A program made the translations under genes and the position numbers. Under the pieces are notes generated by a model. It was given only the letters and a program-made list of their open reading frames with translations. It had not been told where the DNA came from and did no database searches. A stretch of 64,000 bases of DNA from positions 1 through 64,000 of the IMG/VR virus record IMGVR_UViG_2775506835_000006, one strand, 5' to 3'. The stretch is from a virus. Its lineage: Duplodnaviria; Caudoviricetes. This document shows positions 43,875 to 62,842 of the stretch, in pieces (position 1 is the stretch's first letter; every line of letters begins with the position of its first letter).

Positions 43875-46800
43875 GTGGCAATTGTGGGGCAAGGGAAAGA
43901 GAATATTTATCTGCGCATAGAAATGATGACGGTGGTCAATTATGCACTGCAGCAAAATTCTGTGCCGGTAATCCAGGAAATTAAAATTGAAAACGCTACA
44001 AAACAAGACATTACTGATGTTACAATTCAGGTACAAAGCAGTCCAGCTATTGTATGTCCTTTTGCTTTAAATATAGCTGCGCTTTCAGCAGGAGAATCTT
44101 ATTCTATTAGGGAGCCTTCGCTTGTATTAGACGGCGCGTATTTAGCGGGATTAACAGAGCGTATCAACGTAATATTGCAAATTTTTGTAAAAAAAGAGTC
44201 AAATACTTTAGCTTCCTTTGAAAGGTCTCTGACAGTTCTGGCTTTTGACGAGTGGCCGGGAATAACGGTTCTCCCGGAACTCCTGACTGCATTTATCTTA
44301 CCAAACCATTCGGAAGTAGTACAAATAAATGCGAAAGCGGCAAAATTTTTGGAACAGTGGAGTGGAGATCCTTCCTTAGATGCATATCAGTCTCGCGACC
44401 CCAACCGAGCCCGGTTGCAGGCAGCCGCCATATACGGTGCTTTGCAGGCGCAAAATATTGTATATTCGGTTCCGCCAGCCAGTTTTGAAGCAATTGGCCA
44501 ACGTATACGATTATGCGATGCTGTTATGCAGCAAAAGATGGGGACCTGTATGGACTTAACGTTACTCTATGCCGCCTGTTTGGAGGCCGCTGGATTGCAT
44601 CCGTTGCTTCTATTGCAGCCGGGCCATATTTTTGCAGGCGTATGGTTGGAGGACTTAACGTTTCCGGAGGCAATACAGGATGATCCTTCTCTAATAACAA
44701 AGCGTTTGGCGGACGGTGTCAACGAAATTGCTGTTGTGGAATGTACCGCGTTTACAGCTGGCAAAGGGTTAAGCTTTGAACAGGCATCTTCTGCTGCGGA
44801 ACAGAAACTGACGGGAGGGTCGTTGGACTGCCTGATTGATGTTTTTCGTGCAAGATTAAGTGGAATTCACCCTCTACCTTTGCGCGTTTTGGATGGAAAT
44901 CAATGGACGATTGCTCGTGATGAAGTAGATATTGAAAAGATTACAAAGGCTCCTGCGTCAAAGATCGAAACCGTTCGCGTTTTGGAAGGCCATCCAGAGA
45001 ATGCTGGAAAAATGGCGCAGTGGGAACGAAAATTGCTTGACTTAGGAATGCGGAATACATTGCTAAATCTCCGTCTTACGCGAACGGTTATTCCAATTCT
45101 GTCTCCGTCTCTCCGCGATTTAGTGGAGGCACTGGTGGATCGAGGCGAATTTGGTATTGCGTCGCGTCCGGATGAATGGTCTGTCCGTGAGGAAGATCAA
45201 AAGGATCCGGAAAAGCTCGTGTGTACAAGCAATATACATCATTTAATTAAGTGTGAATTTCATAATATGCGATTGCGTACGTCTCTCAGCGAAGGGGAAT
45301 TGGCCCGGTCTGTCATCCATTTATACCGTTCCGCTAGAACCGCTTTGGAGGAAAACGGGGCAAATACGCTGTATTTAGCCATAGGTTTGCTGCGATGGTA
45401 TGAAACGAAAACAAGTCAAACAGCGAGATATGCGCCGGTCGTGTTGTTGCCAGTGGAGATTGTCCGGAAATCTGCCTTGAAAGGCTATGTAATCCGCTCC
45501 CGAAGTGATGAGGAACCACAGATAAACGTTACACTTTTGGAGAAGCTCAAACAAGATTTTGAAATTACCATTAGCGGGTTGGACCCATTGCCGCAGGATG
45601 AAAACGGCTTAGATATTCGGCTTATTTTGGTCAGGATGCGTAGGGCAATTATGGATCAACGCGGATGGGATGTTCTGGAAACAGCAGTTCTTGGAGTTTT
45701 CTCTTTTTCCCAGTTTGTAATGTGGAATGATATACGTAATCGTGCGGAAGATTTGCAAAAAAATAGACTTGTGCGCAGTTTAATGGATGGAAAACTGGCG
45801 TGGATGCCACCGGCAATGCAATTGGGAGCATGCGTTCCGGAAGAAGGTGTTTTGTTGCCTATTCCAGCGGATGCATCCCAGCTTTATGCTATCGAAGCGG
45901 CGGCCCGTGGAGAGAGTTTTGTATTGCATGGCCCGCCAGGCACAGGCAAATCCCAGACAATTACGGCCATGATAGCCAATGCGGTTGCACAGGGTAAGAC
46001 GGTTCTTTTTGTTGCAGAAAAAATGGCGGCTCTATCGGTTGTACAGCGCCGGTTAGAAGAAATAGGCATTGGACCGTTTTGCTTGGAATTACATTCTAAT
46101 AAGTCTCAAAAGCATGCTGTATTGGAGCAACTGCGTATGGCAACAGAAATCGCCAATCGAAATGAATCCGCGAACTATAAAGAACAAGCGGAGCAAGCAG
46201 CGCAAATGCGTAAGGAGTTGGATGCGTACGCGCGTTCTCTACATCAAAAGAGAGCGTCGGGCCTATCTCTTTTTGAGATGATCAGTGGCTATGAAAAATG
46301 CCGGCTTGCGCCGGATACCGTTCATTTCTCCGATGAATTTGCCTTTTCAGCTAATTGCTCTGTGTTGGCTAAGTATAAACTGTTGATTGGTCAGCTTATC
46401 GCTGCTGGCAAGGCGATTGGACATCCATATGGAAACCCGTTGCGTTTGATTCCTTTATCCGTTTATACGCAGCAGTTGCACTTCGGTTTGCCTAACGCGC
46501 TGATTTCTTACCGATCTGCTTTAGAGCAGCTTGAAGAGGCAGGGACGCAGTTTTCAGAAGCTTTGGATCGGAAGGTACCGGATAGTTTGGAAGAGTGGAA
46601 ACAACTTTATCAGATAGCCGAAGCGTTAATGAAATGGATTTTCATTCCAAGAGCTTGGGCAAAGGATGAAACCTTTTCTTATTCCATGCAGAAGATGAGA
46701 GAAATGTCACGGCATTACCAAAAGGCACGCGAACTTTCCGATGATTTAAACGGTTCGTGGAACAAAGAGTTTTTAAAACAAGATGGCGAAGCTTTACTTA

Positions 46801-49667
46801 CACAATGGCGGCAAATTTCTAGTCAATGGTTTTTAACAAAGGCGTTAGGTCAAAACAAAATAGAGAGTCAACTTTCGCCGTTTGCCCGCAGAATTGTAAA
46901 TAAAACGTTGTTGGAACGGGACCTAGAACGATTGGTCAATTATCAAAAGGAGCAGTCTGCTGCCAATGAGTTGTTTACGTTCTATAAAGAGTATTTGGAG
47001 CCAGTTTTTAAGGGCGAAGATACGGACTGGAAACAACTCGAAACACAAATTGAACAGGCATTGCACGATGCGTCTGAGTTAGCTGAATTGACTGGTGGAG
47101 AGGAAATGCGTCTCCGTTTTGCTGCCCGAAAAGAACTTCAGGGCACAATCGGGCAAATGATAGAATCTTATTCTGTTATGCAAGACGCCAAATCCTCGCT
47201 GTACTCCCTGCTGGAGGTATATGACGGAGAATGGGGGCCAGCTGATTGGTTACATGGGCAATTGCAATTTTGTAATCAGATGGAAAAACATATTGAGATG
47301 CTGCGTGATTGGATTTTATGGAATCGCACCTGCCAGGAAATAGAAAAAGAGGGACTTGGACCGTTGGTGAGAGCTTATGAAAATGGGCTGGAACATGAAA
47401 ATGTTGAAAGTGCTTGTTTTCGAGGCATTTATAAAGCGTTAATTGAGCATACCATTGACGAGGATCCTGCACTGTTGCGGTTTTCCGGCGCGATGTTCAA
47501 TGAAAAGATTCAGCAATTTAAACAAATGGATCAAAAATTGCAGAAATTGGCGAAGGTTGAAATATACAACCAATTGACAGCCAAGATGCCTCATTTTGAG
47601 CTGGAGGCAGTGCAAAGTTCGGAAGTGGGTATACTGCAAAGAGCCATTCGCAGTGGTGGCCGAGGAATCAGTATCCGACGGTTGTTTGAACAAATTCCTG
47701 AACTTTTGACTAGATTGTGTCCCTGCATGCTTATGAGTCCTATTTCAGCGGCGCAATACTTGAATCCGAAATGTAAGCCTTTTGATATTGTGGTGTTTGA
47801 CGAAGCTTCTCAAATGCCAACTTGCAAAGCAGTAGGAGCGATCGCCAGGGGGAAGAGTGCGGTGATTGTGGGTGATCCCAAACAGATGCCACCGACCAGT
47901 TTTTTCTCCGGCAATACAGTAGATGAAGATAATTTACAGCAAGAAGATTTGGAAAGCATTCTGGATGATTGCCTGGCGATCCAATTGCCGCAGGCGTATT
48001 TGCTCTGGCACTATCGAAGCCATCATGAAAGCCTGATCTCTTTTAGTAATAGTCAATTTTATGAGAACAAACTTTATACGTTTCCATCGGCGGATGATTT
48101 GGCATCCAAAGTTTCGTTAGTGCATGTAGAAGGCTTTTTTGATCGGGGAAAAACAAGACAAAATAAAGCAGAAGCGAAAGCGGTCATCCATGAGTTACAA
48201 AGGCGTTGCCACAATCCAGTTTTTGCAAACCAGAGTGTGGGCGTTGTAACGTTTAATATAACACAACAGAGTCTGATCGAAGATCTTTTGACAGATGCTT
48301 GTAAAGAAGATGCGGATTTAGAAGATTGGGCATACAACCGGCCTGAGCCACTGTTTATAAAAAATCTGGAGAATGTACAGGGTGATGAGCGGGACGTTGT
48401 ATTGTTTTCTGTGGGATATGGTCCTGATGAGCAAGGCCGTATTACTATGAATTTTGGACCGCTCAATCGGGACGGCGGTTGGTGCAGGTTAAACGTAGCT
48501 GTTTCCCGAGCGCGGGAAGAAATGATAGTGTTTTCTACTATCACTGCGGAGCAGATCAATTTATCCAGGTGCGGCGGGGCAGGTGTAGCTGCCTTAAAAG
48601 CATTTTTAAGGTATGCCAACGGTGAGCGAATCGCGGAACAAAAAGAGACAGGACAGGAGCATACGATTCGTAATGGGATTGCGGACATGCTTTGTTGTAA
48701 GCTGACCGATGAGGGATATGAAACCCGGACAATGATTGGCCGTTCCGACTTTCGGATAGATGTAGGTGTTGTGGATCCAAGTCAGCCGAAACAATATTTG
48801 CTGGGTATTTTGTTAGACGGCCCTATGTACGGCGCAGCTAAAACAACGCGTGACCGTGAAATTGCTCGAGCGGATGTATTAAAAAAGCTGGGGTGGGAGC
48901 TTCATCGCATTTGGTCAATAGATTGGTGGATCAACAGTCAAAAAGAATTTGATCGTTTACTGGAACATATAAAGCAAACCGTTGAGAGTCGTAAAAAGCT
49001 CCAAGCGGATCCAGAGTACAACCTGTCCGTTAAATCAAGTAAGCGCTTGGTGGCAGATAGCTGCGCGCAGTATGCACCATGTGTCCAGGAATCATGTATT
49101 TTACTTTATGAAGCCGCCTCGTTGGCGAAAGAGACGCTCTCTTCCGACGCTTTTTTATTGCCGCAGTATGATAATCGAATTAAAGAGGCGTTTGAACAAG
49201 TCCTGAGTGTAGAGGCTCCTATTAGAGAAAGTTTACTAATCCGGCGCGTTCTGCAAAGTTTTGGATTTGGAAGGACTGGCGCCCGGCTGCAGGAACGGGC
49301 AGAGATTTTGTTGAAGCAGATGGGTCTTTCCTATACAATGCAGCGAGGCGAAAAATTTTACTGGCGCAATGACCAGAACCCCGATACATATTCAGAATTC
49401 CGTCAATCTGGTATAGGAAATCACAAGCGAGACGCGCAGGATCTACCTGTAGAAGAAGTGTCGAATGCGGTTTGCAGGGTTTTGCAGGATAAGGTTGGTC
49501 TGCAAAAAGAGGACCTTATTCGTGAAACTGCAAGGCTGCTAGGCTATGCGAGATCGGGTAATGTTGTCGTTGAAGTTGTGACCTACGGAATAAAACATGC
49601 CTTAAAGACAAGTAAAATACTTGTAGACGACACAGCCCATTTGTATAACTTAAAACAAAATAGATAA
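43875..49667 (+). CDS. DUF4011 / SF1 helicase / Vsr-like nuclease / DUF3320 protein (Hhe-like anti-phage)
   Basis: WERKLLDL..RN.LLN, GPPGTGKS, DEASQ, VQGDERD, RLNVAVSRAR, RIWS.DWW. Confidence 0.85.
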   Translation: MAIVGQGKENIYLRIEMMTVVNYALQQNSVPVIQEIKIENATKQDITDVTIQVQSSPAIVCPFALNIAALSAGESYSIREPSLVLDGAYLAGLTERINVILQIFVKKESNTLASFERSLTVLAFDEWPGITVLPELLTAFILPNHSEVVQINAKAAKFLEQWSGDPSLDAYQSRDPNRARLQAAAIYGALQAQNIVYSVPPASFEAIGQRIRLCDAVMQQKMGTCMDLTLLYAACLEAAGLHPLLLLQPGHIFAGVWLEDLTFPEAIQDDPSLITKRLADGVNEIAVVECTAFTAGKGLSFEQASSAAEQKLTGGSLDCLIDVFRARLSGIHPLPLRVLDGNQWTIARDEVDIEKITKAPASKIETVRVLEGHPENAGKMAQWERKLLDLGMRNTLLNLRLTRTVIPILSPSLRDLVEALVDRGEFGIASRPDEWSVREEDQKDPEKLVCTSNIHHLIKCEFHNMRLRTSLSEGELARSVIHLYRSARTALEENGANTLYLAIGLLRWYETKTSQTARYAPVVLLPVEIVRKSALKGYVIRSRSDEEPQINVTLLEKLKQDFEITISGLDPLPQDENGLDIRLILVRMRRAIMDQRGWDVLETAVLGVFSFSQFVMWNDIRNRAEDLQKNRLVRSLMDGKLAWMPPAMQLGACVPEEGVLLPIPADASQLYAIEAAARGESFVLHGPPGTGKSQTITAMIANAVAQGKTVLFVAEKMAALSVVQRRLEEIGIGPFCLELHSNKSQKHAVLEQLRMATEIANRNESANYKEQAEQAAQMRKELDAYARSLHQKRASGLSLFEMISGYEKCRLAPDTVHFSDEFAFSANCSVLAKYKLLIGQLIAAGKAIGHPYGNPLRLIPLSVYTQQLHFGLPNALISYRSALEQLEEAGTQFSEALDRKVPDSLEEWKQLYQIAEALMKWIFIPRAWAKDETFSYSMQKMREMSRHYQKARELSDDLNGSWNKEFLKQDGEALLTQWRQISSQWFLTKALGQNKIESQLSPFARRIVNKTLLERDLERLVNYQKEQSAANELFTFYKEYLEPVFKGEDTDWKQLETQIEQALHDASELAELTGGEEMRLRFAARKELQGTIGQMIESYSVMQDAKSSLYSLLEVYDGEWGPADWLHGQLQFCNQMEKHIEMLRDWILWNRTCQEIEKEGLGPLVRAYENGLEHENVESACFRGIYKALIEHTIDEDPALLRFSGAMFNEKIQQFKQMDQKLQKLAKVEIYNQLTAKMPHFELEAVQSSEVGILQRAIRSGGRGISIRRLFEQIPELLTRLCPCMLMSPISAAQYLNPKCKPFDIVVFDEASQMPTCKAVGAIARGKSAVIVGDPKQMPPTSFFSGNTVDEDNLQQEDLESILDDCLAIQLPQAYLLWHYRSHHESLISFSNSQFYENKLYTFPSADDLASKVSLVHVEGFFDRGKTRQNKAEAKAVIHELQRRCHNPVFANQSVGVVTFNITQQSLIEDLLTDACKEDADLEDWAYNRPEPLFIKNLENVQGDERDVVLFSVGYGPDEQGRITMNFGPLNRDGGWCRLNVAVSRAREEMIVFSTITAEQINLSRCGGAGVAALKAFLRYANGERIAEQKETGQEHTIRNGIADMLCCKLTDEGYETRTMIGRSDFRIDVGVVDPSQPKQYLLGILLDGPMYGAAKTTRDREIARADVLKKLGWELHRIWSIDWWINSQKEFDRLLEHIKQTVESRKKLQADPEYNLSVKSSKRLVADSCAQYAPCVQESCILLYEAASLAKETLSSDAFLLPQYDNRIKEAFEQVLSVEAPIRESLLIRRVLQSFGFGRTGARLQERAEILLKQMGLSYTMQRGEKFYWRNDQNPDTYSEFRQSGIGNHKRDAQDLPVEEVSNAVCRVLQDKVGLQKEDLIRETARLLGYARSGNVVVEVVTYGIKHALKTSKILVDDTAHLYNLKQNR

Positions 49668-49745: not shown

Positions 49746-49848
49746 CTAAGGAAGTAAGCCGGTCAACTGGCACAAGGATTCAAATCCCTTTACCCTCCGA
49801 CAAAAGCCGCATGGTTAAGCCGTTTTCGGACAACCATGCGACTTTTTT
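49746..49848 (+). repeat. Degenerate att relic (tRNA-Ser 3' end plus terminator)
   Basis: Mismatched copy of 50173-50276. Confidence 0.8.
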
Positions 49849-50127: not shown

Positions 50128-50166
50128 TTATGTTCAAAGTATTGCATAAAGCCACAAAATAAATCA

Positions 50167-50228
50167 CCCCTGCTAAGGGAGTAGGTCGGGCAACTGGCGC
50201 AAGGGTTCAAATCCCTTCTTCTCCGCCA
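50167..50228 (+). other. att core: 3' portion of tRNA-Ser(GCT), not a complete tRNA
   Basis: CCC-CTGCTAA-GGGAG, long variable arm, GGTTCAAATCC, CTCCGCCA; 5' acceptor strand and D-arm absent. Confidence 0.9.
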
Positions 50229-50352: not shown

Positions 50353-51467
50353 TTAAAGCTGATCCACAGCTTTTAAGAGTTCTTCCAAAGGAGTATGAAT
50401 GTAGTTCTCGTAGGTGGTTTCAAAATCAGCGTGCCCGCCCGCTTCTGCAATCACCGCTGGGGCAATGGTGCTCTTGCTTGCGAGGCGCGTGAAATAGGTA
50501 TGCCGGCAAGTGTAGGGAACAAGGTGCCGGACGCCTACACGCTCTACAGTCTCCCAATAGGCAGCATAGAAATTGTCTTCATTCATTTCAAGTAGCTTGC
50601 GGCGTCGGGAATGCATGAGTTCCCGGATGATGGGGACGATCTTTGTGGCGATCGGGATTCTTCGGTTTGTGCCTGCTTCGGTTTTGTTTCCTCCGATCAT
50701 ATACCGTTCATCCAGATAAATGTTTTTTAAAAGGATGTCGAAGAGTTCTCCCGGGCGCATACCGGTATATAGAAGAATCAGTATGTATCCGGTAAAAGGG
50801 TGCAGCCTCTGGCCGATGTCGTTGAGCTCATTAAAGTCTTTCCAAAAACGCTGCACTTCCAGATCGTCAAACGCTTCTCGCTGTTTCTTTTTTAACTCAG
50901 GAAGTTCCAGATTCTCTGTTTTATTATAGGTGCAGATTTCTTTTTTCATCGCCAGTTTGTACAGGTGCGAAAGCATGTCTCGCATATCCCTGGCGGGGTA
51001 ATAGGTATTCGTCATTCTATTGATAACGGTTTGCATATCATCCACACCGGTTTCGGAAATTGGCTTCCGATGCAGGGCGGCCAGTCGCTTCCAGGCATAC
51101 CCAAGCTTGTCCTTCTGCGATTTGCTGAGCTTTTGGTATTTGCGCGATTCCAGAAACTCGTTGTGCAATTGTTCAAAGGTGATACCTGCTTTGTCGCTTG
51201 TGCCCGCCAAAGTAGGGAGGTAGTCCACCGCATCCTTTTTCCTTTCAAAGGTTTTGGTGGCCTTCTTCCGATGAAGATTTCCGTCGTCTCCTATGTAGTA
51301 GTAAAGCGTGACTTCGGCAACGTACTTCTTACCGCGCTGATATACGGTTCCGGTACCGTTCCCCCTGGACTTAGGTTTGCGCTCCCTGGCAGCGAGACCC
51401 CGCAGTAAAGGCAATATGCAGAACTGTCGGGAATCTCCTTTCCGCATTTTTTGTTTTTACAAATCAC
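50353..51467 (-). pseudogene. int: Tyrosine integrase 2, frameshifted near 51392
   Basis: AAGGAGG+GTG at 51467 opens VICKNKKC..CLYCGVS; homology to int1 resumes (KPKSRGNGTG) in another frame. Confidence 0.85.
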
Positions 51468-57132: not shown

Positions 57133-57936
57133 GTGTACCTGAAGAAGACCTGTAAAGCTGGAATCACTATAGAAGTACACAAGAGCTATTCCGCCCGGTA
57201 CGGCCGAAACATCCCAAGGGGAAAAAGAGAAAGCCGCACACCGGAGGCGATGAAAAAATACAACGAGAAGATGGCGTGGAGAAAGCTCACCCGGCAGATC
57301 AACGCGAACTTTGTTCCCGGGGATCTATTCCTGACCTGCACCTACCGGAAGGAGGTGCGTCCGGATCCACAGCGGGCGAAGCAAAATATAGAGAATTTCC
57401 TGGACCGTGTACGTAGGCGTTTCAAAAAGGCAGGGGTGGAGTTTAAATACATTCTGGTGACAGCCTATGGAAAGCAGGGCGGGATCCATCATCACGTGAT
57501 CATTCCTGCATTTGATTATCAGGTTGTTACAGCATGTTGGCCGCACGGAGCTATGCGGTTTGAGGCCCTGTATCCAGATGGCGAATACTCCGCCCTTGCC
57601 TGGTATCTTATCAAACAATCCCGCCTGTCCCCAGATGGAAGGGAATCCATTCCCGGGAATCGATGGTCCGGAAGCCGGAATCTTATCAAGCCGGTGGAGA
57701 AGGTGCAGGAGGTAGACGCCAGGGAGTGGCGCGAGGAACCGAAACCTGTTAAAGGCTATTACATAGATCCGAATTCTGTAGAGAATGGGATTTCGCCGGT
57801 CACGGGGATTCCATATCAGTTCTACAGGATGATTCAAATACAGTCATTACAAAAGGAAAGAGAAAGTTTAACAAATACAAAGCGATCCAAGGGAGAGAAA
57901 CTAAAAGATAAACGAAGTAAAGGACATTCTAAATAG
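57133..57936 (+). CDS. HUH-family replication initiator-like protein
   Basis: FLTCTY, IHHHVII, LAWYL; C-terminal tail differs from copy 1. Confidence 0.8.
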   Translation: MYLKKTCKAGITIEVHKSYSARYGRNIPRGKRESRTPEAMKKYNEKMAWRKLTRQINANFVPGDLFLTCTYRKEVRPDPQRAKQNIENFLDRVRRRFKKAGVEFKYILVTAYGKQGGIHHHVIIPAFDYQVVTACWPHGAMRFEALYPDGEYSALAWYLIKQSRLSPDGRESIPGNRWSGSRNLIKPVEKVQEVDAREWREEPKPVKGYYIDPNSVENGISPVTGIPYQFYRMIQIQSLQKERESLTNTKRSKGEKLKDKRSKGHSK

Positions 57937-58037
57937 AATTAAAAGTAAAATCAACCGGTCGTAAGTGTTTAAAGTACAGCGGCTTAAAGAGCAAAAGTCA
58001 CGTGCGTTGAGCTTTTTCTAACGAGCATATAGATAAA

Positions 58038-58204
58038 GTGCGAATCGCAAGCTCACATAGATTTCTTAAGAGATTCGCACCTCGCATAGTTACTGGATTT
58101 TTTGCATTTTAATTCTCATACAGGGGAATTGTTTTCTCATTTTTATGGGATTCGCATTTTAGGCCTTTACAACCCGCATGGTTACTGGGTATAATAGGGG
58201 TGCA
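58038..58204 (+). promoter_or_regulatory. CRISPR leader with inverted repeat and promoter
   Basis: GTGCGAATC(58038)..GATTCGCAC(58080); AT-rich stretch; TTTACA(58166)-N18-TATAAT(58190). Confidence 0.75.
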
Positions 58205-58566
58205 GTCAAAATCCACGCCCCGTAAGGGGACGGAAACCCCCTGCTTCCCGATGCGGTAAATCCCGAAGTCGTGTCAAAATCCACGCCCCGTAAGGGGACG
58301 GAAACAGCTCTTTCTACATCCAACTGATAAGTTTCATAGGTCAAAATCCACGCCCCGTAAGGGGACGGAAACGGCTGACCGCCAAGCCGCACCAGTAAAA
58401 TGCGCGTCTAAATCCACGCCCCGTAAGGGGACGGAAACATTCCAAAGCTGCTTTAGCTTTGTAGGATTACCGGTCTAAATCCACGCCCCGTAAGGGGACG
58501 GAAACCCGCCCTGAATATCATTCGTCCCATAAAAGATGGGTCTAAATCCACGCCCCGTAAGGGGAC
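58205..58566 (+). CRISPR. Orphan CRISPR mini-array: 6 repeats (last truncated), 5 spacers of 35, 34, 33, 34, 34 bp
   Basis: 33-bp repeat GTC(A/T)AAATCCACGCCCCGTAAGGGGACGGAAAC at 58205, 58273, 58340, 58406, 58473, 58540; unique spacers; no cas gene in window. Confidence 0.97.
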
Positions 58567-58572
58567 AAAAAG

Positions 58573-58610
58573 AAGCGCCCATTCCGGAAACTTGCCGGAA
58601 TGGGCGCTTT
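58573..58610 (+). terminator. Terminator closing the CRISPR transcript
   Basis: AAGCGCCCATTCCGG..CCGGAATGGGCGCTTT. Confidence 0.85.
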
Positions 58611-58715
58611 GTTCGCGTCTAAAAACTGCATCTGTTCCATTTGTGCGATACTTAGAAATAATAGAAGGTATCAATATATCGCATACCACAGCGGTTAAGA
58701 ATGGAGGCAGGCAGC

Positions 58716-59126
58716 GTGGGGCGCAGAGACCTGAATTTGGATGAATACAATATCACAAAACTACAGTATCGAGAACTTCATAACTTTTGTTTGCAATATG
58801 CTGATAAGAAACAGCAGCTTGCGGAACTGAAAAATCCATATGGGAGTTCACAGGGTTACAATACGCCGACTGGCTGTACAATAGGAGATCCAACTGCAAG
58901 GACAGCGGAACGAATCATAATCCTTTCTAAAGAGATTGAAGCAATTGAACAAACCGCTATGGAGATCGCCCCGGAAGAATACCAGAATATTCTGTTGGCG
59001 GTAACGGAGGACGTTCCCTGGCATTTCCTACAGCTGTTAAAAGGGTTAGAAATGGGAAGGCATGACTTTGAATGTGCTAGAAGGCGCTTTTACTATAATC
59101 TTGCACAAAGAAAAGGGATGATATAA
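58716..59126 (+). CDS. Putative late transcriptional activator (RinA/ArpU-like position)
   Basis: YRELHNFCLQY..GDPTARTA..AIEQTA..RRRFYY; precedes late module. Confidence 0.65.
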   Translation: MGRRDLNLDEYNITKLQYRELHNFCLQYADKKQQLAELKNPYGSSQGYNTPTGCTIGDPTARTAERIIILSKEIEAIEQTAMEIAPEEYQNILLAVTEDVPWHFLQLLKGLEMGRHDFECARRRFYYNLAQRKGMI

Positions 59127-59285
59127 GGAAATATTTTATATTGCTTGGCGTTCTGAACACATACCTATGGTTTATGATAGAATTACCGAAAACAAAATAA
59201 AATACAAGATCTTCTTCTCTTCCTTCCGTGATAGCGCTCTGCATTCGCAGGGCGCTATTTCTTTACCTGAAAGGAGGCCATTGTA

Positions 59286-59492
59286 TTGAATTACAAAGAA
59301 ACGATAGCAGAATGTGAGGCCGAAATAGCCGTTATTGACGCAAAGCTTGCCCAGATCAGAACCAGCAACAATTGGCTGGAGAACGCCCGATACAATCAGC
59401 TCTCTTGTATGCGCGGGGACCTGTGTCTGCAGCTCCACGCGGCACGGATCGCAGCGAGCAGGGGCCGGCCACCGGATGGAGGTGATCCGTAA
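59286..59492 (+). CDS. Small coiled-coil hypothetical protein, first late gene
   Basis: Homolog of 9815-10021. Confidence 0.75.
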   Translation: MNYKETIAECEAEIAVIDAKLAQIRTSNNWLENARYNQLSCMRGDLCLQLHAARIAASRGRPPDGGDP

Positions 59493-60013
59493 TGGCATTA
59501 AAAGCAAAACAAAAACGATTCGTTGAAGAATACCTTGTTGATTTAAATGCAACGCAGGCGGCAATCCGCGCCGGATATTCTCCGGAATCTGCTGGATCAA
59601 TCGGGAGTGAAAACCTGCATAAACCTGAAATCCGCACGCGTATAGACAAGGCTATGGCCGAACGCTCGAAACGGACCGGAATCAACGCCGACCGTGTCCT
59701 TATGGAATTGGGTAAGATTGCCTTCATCAATGCCACCGACGTGATCAATATGGATGATGCGACAATCTTGTCTGAAGCCAATCGCGACGACACAGCCGCA
59801 ATTGCATCCGTGAAAGTCAAGACCATACCCGGAGAAGATGGAGATGGTGTCGAACGGGAAATCCGCTTGGCTGATAAACTAAAAGCTTTGGAATTGCTGG
59901 GTAAACATTTGGGCCTCTTTACCGATAAGGTAGAAGTGAAAGGGCAGATCGACACCGGGCAGAAAAAGCTTGAGGACATTTTAAGCCAGCTGCGAGGGGA
60001 TTCCGGTGAATGA
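59492..60013 (+). CDS. terS: Terminase small subunit (Terminase_2 type)
   Basis: KQKRFVEEYLVDLNATQAAIRAGYS..KALELLGKHLGLF. Confidence 0.95.
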   Translation: MALKAKQKRFVEEYLVDLNATQAAIRAGYSPESAGSIGSENLHKPEIRTRIDKAMAERSKRTGINADRVLMELGKIAFINATDVINMDDATILSEANRDDTAAIASVKVKTIPGEDGDGVEREIRLADKLKALELLGKHLGLFTDKVEVKGQIDTGQKKLEDILSQLRGDSGE

Positions 60014-61370
60014 GCGCCTGATACTTTCAGAAAAGTATAAAGCCTTTCTCCGGTGCCGGGCACCGTATGAGTTCCTGGAGGGGACCACGGCCGCCGGCAA
60101 AACCACGGTGGGGCTGTTCAAATTCATGCTTCGCGTTGCGGAAAGCCCGAAGAAAATACATATCCTTTCCGGCCTTGACCTTGGCACAATCGAGAAGAAC
60201 ATTATCAACAAAGACCTGGGGATTCTTGACGACTTCGGCCCGCTGGTGGAATACAATGCGTCCGGCCGCGGACAGAATTCCTTGCCGCATTTGCTTTTCC
60301 ATGCGCCGTCAGAGGACAAAATCGTTTACGTGCTTGGCTACGATAACAAGGCCCGCTGGAAAAAGGCTCTGGGCGGACAGTACGGGTGCCTGTACATTGA
60401 TGAGATCAATATTGCAGACATGGAATTCGTCCGTGAAGCGTCTATGCGTTGCGACTACCTGTTGGCCACGCTCAACCCGGATAATCCGGATCTTCCTATC
60501 TACTCGGAATACATCAACCATGCCCGTCCTTTGCCGGAGTGGGAAAACGAGACACCAAAAGAAATATTGTCGATGCTCAACGAAAAACCAAAGCCAGGCT
60601 GGGTGCATTGGTTCTTTTCTTTTGAACATAATCTCGGGTTGCCAGCGGAAAAGGTGCAGCAGATCAGGGACAGCGTCCCGAAGGGTACAAAGCTTTATAA
60701 AAACAAAATTCAGGGCCTGCGCGGCCGCGCAACAGGGCTGGTGTTCAACTTGCAGCCGCATAATCTGGTTTCCGCCAAGTGGCTTCTGGAACAGATGCAG
60801 AGCAATCAAATTAAATTTCTGCAAGTGTCTGCAGGCGTAGATACATCGTATTCGCAGCAGTCAGCCGATACATTTGCATTCGTGTTTTCCGGTATTACGA
60901 CCGACAGGCGGAAGATCACGCTGGCCACGGAGGTACACAACAACCGGGGTCTAACAACGCCGCTGGCGCCCAGCGATATACCACCTCTGCTGATCACGTT
61001 CTTGGAGAAGTATCGCACCATCTTTGATCTGTTCGCCCGCAGCGTCTTCATCGATTCCGCGGATGAGGCCACGATCATTGAATGCCAGAAATACAAACGT
61101 CTGCACGGAAGCGTCTATGAGTTTTGCCCGGCCTGGAAGAAGACAAAAATCATTGACCGTATCAATTTACAGTCCGGCTGGCTGGCGAGCGGGGATTATC
61201 TCCTTGTAACAGAATATTGCAGAGCGGAGATTGATGAACTGAATGCATATAGCTGGAAGGAAGACAAAGACAATGAGCCGGAGGACGGCAACGACCATAC
61301 GATCAACGCAGACCAGTACAGCTGGCTGCCGTACAAAGGCAGGATAGGGGGCAAGGTGATGGTTACTTGA
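60006..61370 (+). CDS. terL: Terminase large subunit (PBSX/Terminase_3-like)
   Basis: GTTAAGKT, YIDE, TLNP, GVD, DGNDH. Confidence 0.9.
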   Translation: MNERLILSEKYKAFLRCRAPYEFLEGTTAAGKTTVGLFKFMLRVAESPKKIHILSGLDLGTIEKNIINKDLGILDDFGPLVEYNASGRGQNSLPHLLFHAPSEDKIVYVLGYDNKARWKKALGGQYGCLYIDEINIADMEFVREASMRCDYLLATLNPDNPDLPIYSEYINHARPLPEWENETPKEILSMLNEKPKPGWVHWFFSFEHNLGLPAEKVQQIRDSVPKGTKLYKNKIQGLRGRATGLVFNLQPHNLVSAKWLLEQMQSNQIKFLQVSAGVDTSYSQQSADTFAFVFSGITTDRRKITLATEVHNNRGLTTPLAPSDIPPLLITFLEKYRTIFDLFARSVFIDSADEATIIECQKYKRLHGSVYEFCPAWKKTKIIDRINLQSGWLASGDYLLVTEYCRAEIDELNAYSWKEDKDNEPEDGNDHTINADQYSWLPYKGRIGGKVMVT

Positions 61371-62842
61371 AATTGAGGGAGAAGGTGAAAGATATGCTGC
61401 GCAATTGGCTGCAAATCCAGCCCGCAACGCCGAACGGGATCGTAATCCAGGAGCCCTTGGATTTTCAGGCGTCGGTGATACGCAATCAAATTTGGTATCG
61501 CGGGGAGGCTGCGGAGCTGGAGCAGCTCTACAAGCAGCTTGGAGCGCAGGACAGTACGAACGCATCCCGGTTTTGGGCTGCCGTGCCCGCCAACGCGATG
61601 AAACTGCGCAAAATTCATTCCGGCCTGCCCGCGATCCTGGTAGACACACTGGCGTATTTGGTCAAGTCGGATATGGATGATGTAGCTTTTAAAGACAACT
61701 GCGGGGAAGCAGAGTGGAAGGCGATCACAGAAGAACTGGATTTTCAAGATACCGTTGGACAGGGTGTCGCCGGCGCGCTGAAAGCAGCGGACGGGGCCTG
61801 GAAAATATCCATAGATATAACCGTATCTCAGTACCCGATCGTCGAGTTTTATGAAGCGGACCGCGTGGAATACATCCAAAGCCGCGGGCGTGTAATAGGT
61901 GTGAAATTTTGGTCGGACCATTCAGACGGCTATAAGGTGTACCGGCTATGTGAGGAATACGGGAAGGGGTATGTTTCGTACGCCCTGTATGACGGGACCA
62001 GTGAAGTCCCGCTCGACCGCATACCGGAGCTGGCGGAATTGAAACCGGTTGCTTTTGATGGGGACTTCATGATGGCGGTGCCGTTCAAAGTCTTTGAGAG
62101 CGCCAAATTCCCAGGCCGCGGAAAAGCTCTGTATGAAAGCAAACTGGACAGCTTTGACGCGCTGGATGAAGTCATCAGCCAATGGTGGGACGCCATGCGC
62201 GCGGGCCGGGTGAAAAAGTATATCCCACGCGACCTGTTGCCGGTAGACCCCAAAACAGGAAATCTGTTGCCGCTGAATGATTTTGGCAGCGAGTACATCA
62301 CTACGGAATCGCTGACGGATGAAAACGGCGTGAGTAGAATCGATACCATACAGCCGGAAATCCGGTATGAAGCGTTTCTGTCTTCCTATACGGCCGCGCT
62401 GGACATGTGCCTGCAGGGGGTTGTTTCCCCGGCCACTCTGGGCATTGACGTTGGTAAGATGAGCAGCGCGGAGGCCCAGCGGGAAAAAAAGGATGTCACA
62501 GGGTATACGCGCAATACCATAACCGGAGTTCTGGAAAAAGTGCTGCCGCAGCTGGTGTCGACGATCCTGATGGTCAACGATCTTATGCAGGGACGCGCCC
62601 CGGGAAACTACGAGCCATCTGTGGGCTTTGGCGAATATGGCGCACCGTCTTTTGATAGCCGGGTGGAGACAGTCAACAGGGCCGCCGCCGCCAATACCAT
62701 GAGCATAGAAACACAGGTGGATGAGCTGTGGGGGAACAGTAAAGACGACGGATGGAAGACCGGTGAAGTTGCCCGCATCAAGCAACTGCGCGGGATCGAG
62801 ACGGTAGATGGACCGCCCGCGGTGGGGGATGAGCTGGCATGA
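61367..62842 (+). CDS. Portal protein (SPP1/A118-like)
   Basis: Follows terL; WYRG, FDALDE, SPATLG. Confidence 0.85.
   Translation: MKLREKVKDMLRNWLQIQPATPNGIVIQEPLDFQASVIRNQIWYRGEAAELEQLYKQLGAQDSTNASRFWAAVPANAMKLRKIHSGLPAILVDTLAYLVKSDMDDVAFKDNCGEAEWKAITEELDFQDTVGQGVAGALKAADGAWKISIDITVSQYPIVEFYEADRVEYIQSRGRVIGVKFWSDHSDGYKVYRLCEEYGKGYVSYALYDGTSEVPLDRIPELAELKPVAFDGDFMMAVPFKVFESAKFPGRGKALYESKLDSFDALDEVISQWWDAMRAGRVKKYIPRDLLPVDPKTGNLLPLNDFGSEYITTESLTDENGVSRIDTIQPEIRYEAFLSSYTAALDMCLQGVVSPATLGIDVGKMSSAEAQREKKDVTGYTRNTITGVLEKVLPQLVSTILMVNDLMQGRAPGNYEPSVGFGEYGAPSFDSRVETVNRAAAANTMSIETQVDELWGNSKDDGWKTGEVARIKQLRGIETVDGPPAVGDELA

Follow-up and report, generated by a model that had tools for sequence, protein, structure and literature searches.

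We analyzed a 64,000-nucleotide stretch of viral DNA (Duplodnaviria, Caudoviricetes; positions 1 to 64,000 of IMG/VR record IMGVR_UViG_2775506835_000006), here called the window, and identified within it a short CRISPR array that combines a type III-A repeat with a leader motif of putative type I-C origin. The window corresponds to C11:429882-493881 of a 3.5-Mb genome (G000), and the array lies inside a prophage, between a replication gene and the terminase genes. This element is probably a virus-borne mini-array of a temperate phage, one that belongs to the type III-A family of the host, would be processed by the host, and would be loaded in trans by the host's type I-C integrase.

The array unit, as a presumed member of the host type III-A (Csm) array family, would be transcribed on the plus strand from its own promoter. 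Host Cas6 would then cut 8 nt from the 3' end of each repeat, leaving CRISPR RNAs (crRNAs) that carry the tag ACGGAAAC; Cas6 leaves the last 8 nt of a repeat as the crRNA tag. Host Csm would use these crRNAs against the transcripts of rival phages, and of the five spacers, two are similar to late phage genes and antisense to them. Type III systems need transcription, and resident prophages would thus be tolerated until induced. New spacers would most likely be inserted in trans by the only integrase of the host, the type I-C Cas1-Cas2-Cas4, which would recognize a leader dyad together with a 33-bp, GT-initiated repeat. Insertion by this integrase is proposed because the dyad stands at the distance seen in I-C leaders and the repeat measures 33 bp instead of the usual 35-37 bp. 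The parts of the array unit are as follows.

58038..58080, plus strand: leader dyad GTGCGAAT-N27-ATTCGCAC, 43 bp long and 124 bp upstream of repeat 1
58149..58156, plus strand: a third half-site copy, GATTCGCA, immediately preceding the -35 box
58166..58195, plus strand: sigma-70-type promoter TTTACA-18-TATAAT, 11/12 positions matching
58205..58572, plus strand: CRISPR mini-array of six 33-bp repeats and five spacers, from repeat search and alignment
58306..58339, plus strand: spacer 2, related to phage genes for the terminase large subunit (TerL), antisense to the coding strand
58506..58539, plus strand: spacer 5, resembling a GDSL-esterase gene, in antisense to its coding strand
58540..58572, plus strand: degenerate terminal repeat (copy 6 of the mini-array), ending ...GGGGACAAAAAG
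58573..58609, no strand assigned: GC-rich 15-bp hairpin terminator abutting the array end, scored on the minus strand

Repeats start at 58205, 58273, 58340, 58406, 58473, and 58540, giving periods of 68, 67, 66, 67, and 67 and spacers 1-5 of 35, 34, 33, 34, and 34 bp. Copies 1-3 read GTCAAAATCCACGCCCCGTAAGGGGACGGAAAC, copies 4-5 have a T at position 4, and the last repeat degenerates in related arrays as it does here. Read on the plus strand, the terminator hairpin is followed by TTTGTT, and the whole unit consists of a leader of ~190 bp, six repeats, five spacers, and the terminator. The 3' half of the repeat forms a CCCC-GTAA-GGGG hairpin on the plus strand, with the 8-nt tag sequence directly 3' of the CCCC/GGGG core stem; the predicted fold of this strand places the hairpin at nt 12-28, followed by 5 unpaired nt. 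A first-pass annotation of this DNA had described a 33-bp repeat with a GTC start and spacers of 33-35 bp, all of which the repeat alignment bore out. The reverse complement of the repeat was as written there, and the dyad that it had reported in the leader was present at 58038-58080; the prophage location of the array was missing from it.

The mini-array repeat was identical at 32 of 33 positions (1 nt apart) to the repeat of a host array on the same contig, 31 kb downstream, which has 13 repeats plus one decayed copy and adjoins a csm operon.

C11:511795-519976: host csm1-csm5 and cas6 with the adjoining 13-repeat array, from family profile matches

The csm1-5 genes matched their families at E values from 1.4e-146 to 2.2e-14 and cas6 was present, and the system beside the host array is type III-A. 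Because of the 32/33 match to the array beside csm1-5/cas6, the mini-array repeat was also typed as III-A, which agrees with the first-pass assignment of the top strand. Neither cas1 nor cas2 was found in the host III-A operon (csm1-5, cas6). The 125 bp upstream of the first repeat were homologous among the host main array, a single-repeat unit on the csm1 side, and the window array. The promoter, which ends 9 nt before repeat 1 and was the only strong site in 57900-58750, is kept in both host leaders and in the same-genus and metagenome leaders, and 5 of the 6 III-A-type leaders in the alignment keep the third half-site with minor changes. Taken together, the conserved promoter, the decayed last repeat, the antisense spacer matches, and the shared leader homology point to transcription from the plus strand (GTC...GAAAC).

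Several other observations were made at the host III-A locus. On the strand opposite csm1, and upstream of that gene, a complete III-A leader with dyad and promoter was followed by a single degenerate repeat and a terminator, exactly where prophage homology stops.

C11:511410-511648 (L012 1411-1649): leader plus single-repeat unit near csm1

A genome of the same genus (G403) has a nine-repeat array at this position, and the unit could be an array that has been emptied or a lone repeat that serves in regulation. Within the 13-repeat host array (C11:519100-519976; L012 9101-9977), the five leader-proximal repeats end in GGAAGT rather than GGAAAC, so that their predicted crRNA tags would differ, and one 36-mer is duplicated as spacers 10 and 11. 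A DUF6602 gene lies 3' of cas6 in the III-A cassettes of both G000 (L012 8049-8948) and G403 (L189 12487-13473) and is a conserved accessory of the cassette in these two genomes.

A single Cas1 match was obtained in the 3.5-Mb genome, within a complete I-C operon (cas3-cas5c-cas8c-cas7-cas4-cas1-cas2) on another contig. The genome was searched for the dyad with the pattern GTGCGAA-N20-40-TTCGCAC, and the pattern read backwards served as the control. All nine occurrences were upstream of a CRISPR array, and the control gave none. Five of the nine dyads belonged to I-C-type arrays, three to III-A-type units, and one to an array of 33-bp repeats beside a TnpB/Cas12-like gene; two more I-C arrays of the same genome had a degenerate dyad, and one small array had no dyad. 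Among 40 relatives the pattern was found in 19 genomes, with one locus examined per genome (own genome included), and these relatives are not independent samples. An I-C array (GTC...GTGGATTGAAAT, period 66-70) lay 117-147 bp downstream at 13 of the 14 loci with a 42-43-nt dyad, and at none of the 6 with dyads of other lengths. This association with I-C arrays argues that the dyad is a leader mark of type I-C in this clade. The first-pass annotation had called the dyad I-C-like, and it did prove to be a hallmark of I-C leaders in the relatives, while heading all array types here.

To compare repeat lengths, III-A repeats with the identical 3' 20-mer were selected as a set; this 20-mer heads arrays in at least 119 loci from many Firmicutes and cyanobacteria. 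Among the matches listed, 58 of 60 distinct consensus repeats were truly 34-38 nt (periods mostly 69-77), and the remaining two were 33 nt, one as scored (L041) and one on inspection after a score of 36 (L107); the 33-bp length is thus atypical for this III-A repeat family, as had been suggested. Only L041, with its 33-nt repeat and visible leader, has the dyad among these loci of other taxa, the leader of L107 being lost at a contig end. The 33-bp III-A subfamily also occurs in G403, in a second same-genus genome (G404), and in four metagenome contigs. Wherever the leader of a 33-nt III-A array was visible, the dyad was present (11 of 11; 8 exact and 3 with 1-2 changes). In the leader on one metagenome contig (L195), the dyad is GTGCGGAC...GTCCGCAC; its two half-sites have mirror-image changes, as would suit a hairpin or a symmetric site for a protein.

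Gene content was also compared. G403 has one cas1 (I-C, beside an I-C leader) and one csm1, with its csm operon flanked by 33-nt arrays, and G404 (88% complete) has csm1, with no cas1 found. G173, of the same genus, and G301 have only the I-C cas1, with neither csm1 nor a 33-nt III-A array. A wider scan of 400 other genomes, a sample without G403 and G404, returned a single one-mismatch match in 1 genome. The four metagenome arrays share trailer-side spacers and differ on the leader side, and the five leader-proximal repeats of the host III-A array share a variant ending; by these patterns, acquisition is active and polar in related III-A arrays. The first-pass proposal of acquisition by I-C Cas1/2/4 combined with Cas6/type III processing fits this genome, in which the only Cas1 is in the I-C operon and the III-A system has no cas1/cas2. 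Neither is the repeat that of a host single-subtype array with its own adaptation module, because the matching III-A system has no cas1/cas2 of its own.

The array therefore shares features with both types. It has in common with type III-A (Csm) arrays the 3' hairpin and 8-nt end, the host csm1-5/cas6, and antisense near-matches, and it differs from them in repeat length, in its spacers (33-36 bp here and ~35-41 bp in the others among the matches listed), in the I-C motif of its leader, in having no cas1/cas2 at the locus, and in having a copy inside a prophage. With type I-C arrays it shares the 33-bp length, the GTC(A) start, the GAAA(C/T) end, the 33-36-bp spacers, and a dyad within the 117-147-bp range; in contrast to them, its plus strand has no 7-bp stem and 11-nt tail, its leader-repeat junction is another one, and it is not near I-C cas genes.

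The prophage setting of the array was defined by the following genes.

50353..51447, minus strand: prophage integrase, adjoining a displaced tRNA-Ser 3' fragment (~50150-50228)
57133..57936, plus strand: replication initiation protein (Rep) gene, left neighbor of the array (phrog_3584, E 1.1e-59)
58701..59126, plus strand: open reading frame (ORF) of 141 amino acids, right neighbor of the array (phrog_11237)
59492-60013, plus strand: terminase small subunit, phage profile match
60006-61370, plus strand: terminase large subunit, phage profile match
61367-62842, plus strand: portal, phage profile match

Beyond the window follow genes for scaffold, major head, tape measure, tail, and endolysin proteins and for a 690-amino acid GDSL protein. 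The Rep protein was 86-94% identical to proteins of two IMG/VR proviruses, whose replication modules were 81-96% identical to the window up to 57888, with homology resuming at 59210. Between these two positions the proviruses carry another segment of ~1 kb, with an ORF of ~170 codons and another regulator gene, and neither array nor dyad was found in it. In a public sequencing run (X1), contigs extended across the junction of Rep, leader, and first repeat at ~98% identity (463 nt, 10 differences) and also covered the downstream flank. No contig of this run covered the five spacers, which fits different spacers there, although a hole between contigs proves nothing. Run X1 holds both phage variants (window 57802-57837), one in which Rep leads to the leader and first repeat and one in which Rep leads to the segment without an array. 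The prophage ends were placed by homology and not by attachment (att) sites, and no convincing direct repeat of 11 nt or more was found as an attachment site. Capture of the array by aberrant prophage excision was considered and dropped, because the array sits in the middle of the phage genome and not at one of the prophage ends, and because identity between its leader and those of the host is only 69-76%.

Spacer 2 matched TerL genes at 33/37 in two Rhodococcus phages and at 31/37 in Faecalibacterium phage FP_oengus. Spacer 5 matched C11:22380-22413 at 30/34, inside the 673-amino acid GDSL gene of a second prophage-like region in this genome, with 3 of the 4 differences at the same codon position; with the prophage's own GDSL gene it had only a 14-nt run in common. 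These near-matches, two from the present array and a third from a related one, are homologues with 84-91% identity and not true protospacers, and 3 of the 3 examined were antisense to the annotated gene. Exact scans of IMG/VR with the repeat core, spacer 2, and a degenerate leader-repeat junction gave no matches, as did an exact metagenome scan with spacer 1. When searched by BLAST against 50,697 phage records, the host III-A array had no match, three of five related arrays had none, and the other two had the same weak endolysin match (29/32 and 27/29). The 97 distinct III-A-type spacers of related arrays, compared with the genome and the fetched loci, gave only one match, of 24/26 and at chance level, and the 26 own I-C and V-like spacers had no match in the genome. 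I-C spacer 7 of G404 (L160) matched the window at 50447-50480 (32/34), in the integrase region and with a 5'-TTC flank, indicating that relatives of the host carry I-C immunity against this phage.

Several of these results weigh against a host-processed array loaded by the I-C integrase. No true protospacer was found for any III-A-type spacer in the phage records, IMG/VR, the genome, or the loci searched; the predicted protospacer adjacent motif (PAM) is 5'-TTC, and the upstream triplets at four homologous but inexact sites were TTC, CTC, CTG, and ACG. Only spacers 2 and 5 of the five had any recognizable relative. The phage repeat has 1-2 changes relative to the host repeat, which could affect Cas6, and the phage leader shares only 76% and 69% identity with the two leaders of the host, so that the phage copy is not a fresh one. 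The leader-repeat junction is GGGGTGCA before GTC here and TTTTGCT before GTC in I-C leaders; if the I-C integrase reads the junction, this leader might not be accepted. In addition, transcription and crRNA processing of the mini-array are predicted from its sequence, and the dyad could be a shared site for a transcription factor instead of a site for the integrase.

That last possibility leads to an account in which the dyad is a regulatory site of all of the arrays and the phage array is a frozen copy, used by Csm but never extended by the I-C integrase. We regard this account as unlikely. The position of the dyad, ~90-130 bp upstream of the promoter, is normal for a regulator, and the -35 box is directly preceded by the third half-site; the phage array itself showed no expansion, and its junction is unlike that of I-C leaders. 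However, related III-A arrays without their own cas1 turn over their leader-end spacers, the only cas1 found in G000 and in G403 is that of I-C, and shortening of the repeat to I-C length is confined, among the matches listed, to the dyad-bearing subfamily. Run X1 and another run, X2, cover the leader and flanks at ~98% identity and have no contig on the five spacers, a weak point since a contig hole proves nothing. A different function, as an RNA decoy (an RNA-based anti-CRISPR) that soaks up Cas6 or Csm without guiding immunity, would suit a phage-borne array with a host-copied repeat and a strong promoter. RNA decoys of CRISPR proteins are known, and those described are mostly solitary repeats; here there are instead a full leader with an acquisition-linked dyad, five regular and unique spacers, two of which are antisense to late genes of phages, and a terminal repeat of the normal kind, which make a decoy very unlikely. 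The whole III-A module (csm operon and arrays) might also be cargo of the same prophage and thus a single phage-encoded system. The last gene of the prophage, for the 690-amino acid GDSL protein, ends 60 bp from the csm1-side single-repeat unit, homology with a related provirus runs to within 4 nt of the single repeat, and the stretch from tRNA-Ser to transfer-messenger RNA (tmRNA) is 90 kb here and 5.4 kb in G173; the second prophage-like region ends alike, with a GDSL gene and then a TnpB/Cas12-like gene and array. Against this, the two related proviruses gave no match past the GDSL gene and no att repeat was found around the cassette. We treat the csm cassette as host-borne because that of G403 (array, csm1-5, cas6, DUF6602, array) is located between pcrA/uvrD and clpB with no phage genes nearby, and the phage-cargo explanation is in our estimation distinctly improbable.

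The first-pass annotation had also held that the bottom strand of the repeat resembles I-C repeats in sequence and geometry, and had raised dual-strand use. The likeness in sequence is above chance, since the reverse complement scored 12 in local alignment with the genome's I-C repeats (reached by ~0.2% of 2000 shuffles; P ~0.002) and the forward strand 9 (reached by 5.4%), and GTGGATT is common to the bottom strand and the genome's I-C repeats. The claim of a special hybrid did not stand. Among the matches listed, 6 of 60 ordinary III-A repeats of other taxa (35-36 bp) scored 13-18 in reverse against I-C repeats, the best being a 35-nt repeat with the reverse tail GTGGTTTGAAAT, and for this reason the likeness is a recurring trait of this repeat family and not a mark of this array. 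Nor did the geometry agree: where an 11-nt tail had been described, the bottom strand has a 4-bp CCCC/GGGG core stem and a 13-nt tail, or 7 nt in the minimum-energy fold, in contrast to the 7-bp stem and 11-nt tail of the genome's own I-C repeat. A ~7-bp stem followed by an 11-nt 3' tail of the I-C type was not present on the plus strand, and the minus strand has a partial likeness to it. The I-C-like motif of the repeat is at the leader-proximal end, the opposite end from that in real I-C arrays. Moreover, a promoter scan of 57900-58750 found no promoter reading the minus strand into the array, the only strong one reading the plus strand; the 15-bp hairpin terminator bars entry from the right; each repeat resembles a terminator on the minus strand; and all three spacer near-matches fit the pairing of a plus-strand crRNA with mRNA. 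Use of both strands, or reading of the bottom strand as an I-C-type repeat cut by Cas5c, is therefore extremely improbable.

We return to the favored reading, a phage-borne III-A array filled in trans by the I-C integrase, and to how it compares with known systems. Type I PAMs have been described for type III arrays that have no cas1-2 (Vink et al. 2021, PMC8482600), and trans-adaptation of type III arrays by type I modules has been established statistically (PMC8482600; PMC12814883). Those cases have in common with ours an effector-only type III system, a type I system as sole owner of cas1-cas2, and distinct repeats; they differ in that the link is legible in the DNA here, as an I-C dyad and a repeat of I-C length. 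In the main text of PMC8482600, the only pairs in the category of distinct repeats with shared acquisition are I-B with III and I-E with III; I-C with III appears only under shared repeats, although the per-genome tables could hold I-C/III-A pairs. According to a study of leaders (10.1101/2023.05.26.542337), subtype-specific motifs stand 100-200 bp upstream of the first repeat in most I-F and I-C leaders and in some of the I-E leaders, the inverted repeats of I-F leaders bind Cas2, and type I integration into foreign repeats follows leader motifs and repeat length rather than repeat sequence. These statements fit the I-C insertion step proposed here. The I-F leader that guides Cas1-2/3 together with integration host factor (IHF), as described in that work, likewise has inverted repeats 100-200 bp upstream, and the likening of its I-C motif to our dyad is by description and position, not by sequence. 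Virus-borne mini-CRISPR arrays are known (Medvedeva et al. 2019, PMC6858448), and they share with this one a short array, a host repeat, no cas genes of their own, and spacers, here two of the five, that resemble genes of other viruses; this one differs in its bacterial prophage, its III-A repeat, and a leader seemingly built for the I-C integrase. By this likeness, the mini-array probably serves conflicts between viruses. Prophages of Clostridioides difficile also carry CRISPR arrays.

Outside the supplements and the 2021 leader-motif survey, no description of the dyad was found in the literature on I-C leader motifs and on I-C/III-A trans-acquisition. What appears to be new is a chimera of I-C leader dyad, III-A promoter and repeat, and I-C repeat length that recurs in several genomes. 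Also new is the pairing of I-C and III-A with distinct repeats, which is not listed for that category in the main text of PMC8482600, and so is the presence of the chimera on a prophage, alongside a one-spacer I-C mini-array and a dyad-bearing TnpB/Cas12-like array in a second prophage-like region. Many type III systems, and some of type V, have no cas1-cas2, and the source of their spacers has mostly been deduced from shared PAMs. An I-C motif grafted onto a III-A promoter and repeat would make such coupling legible in the DNA itself, in several genomes and metagenomes, and the chimera offers a simple test bed for what the integrase needs in leader motif, repeat length, and end bases. Since prophages of this gut Clostridia lineage carry such arrays, host immune memory and the host integrase may serve in wars between phages, and the phage array looks like a weapon aimed at rival phages, one that enzymes of the host itself can load and use.

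The dyad could further be a portable adaptation socket through which one I-C Cas1-Cas2-Cas4 feeds an I-C Cascade, a III-A cassette, a TnpB/Cas12-like gene, and prophage arrays, a broader proposal that we put forward tentatively and would not yet adopt. If it were true, the III-A repeat would have been trimmed from ~36 to 33 bp with its Cas6/Csm end kept, and the host integrase would keep the phage array updated, making it an adaptive rather than a fixed weapon against competitors.

Other features were noted outside the prophage. Positions 1-50228 of the window form a separate island, with an intact tRNA-Ser just before the window. The original 3' part of this tRNA-Ser is displaced to ~50150-50228, where 73 nt are 100% identical to G173. 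The island contains a 1930-amino acid ORF at 43875-49667 and a different tRNA-like 3' fragment at ~49776-49802.

The second prophage-like region, outside the window, has two arrays of its own. At its end, after an amidase and the 673-amino acid GDSL protein, is a 509-amino acid TnpB/Cas12-like gene (NCBIfam guided_TnpB, E 6e-20, below the cut-off of that family).

G000 C11:22941-25218 (L015 8942-11219): TnpB/Cas12-like gene, then dyad, then nine-repeat array

The nine-repeat array has a third type of 33-bp repeat and the same leader dyad, and the unit is a candidate for a phage-linked type V system without cas1-2. The other array of the region, at G000 C11:11940-12230, is an I-C-type mini-array with one spacer, a degenerate dyad, TTTTGCT before GTC at the junction, and a terminator. 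It is directly upstream of a coiled-coil phage-like ORF and would be the second phage-borne array of this genome.

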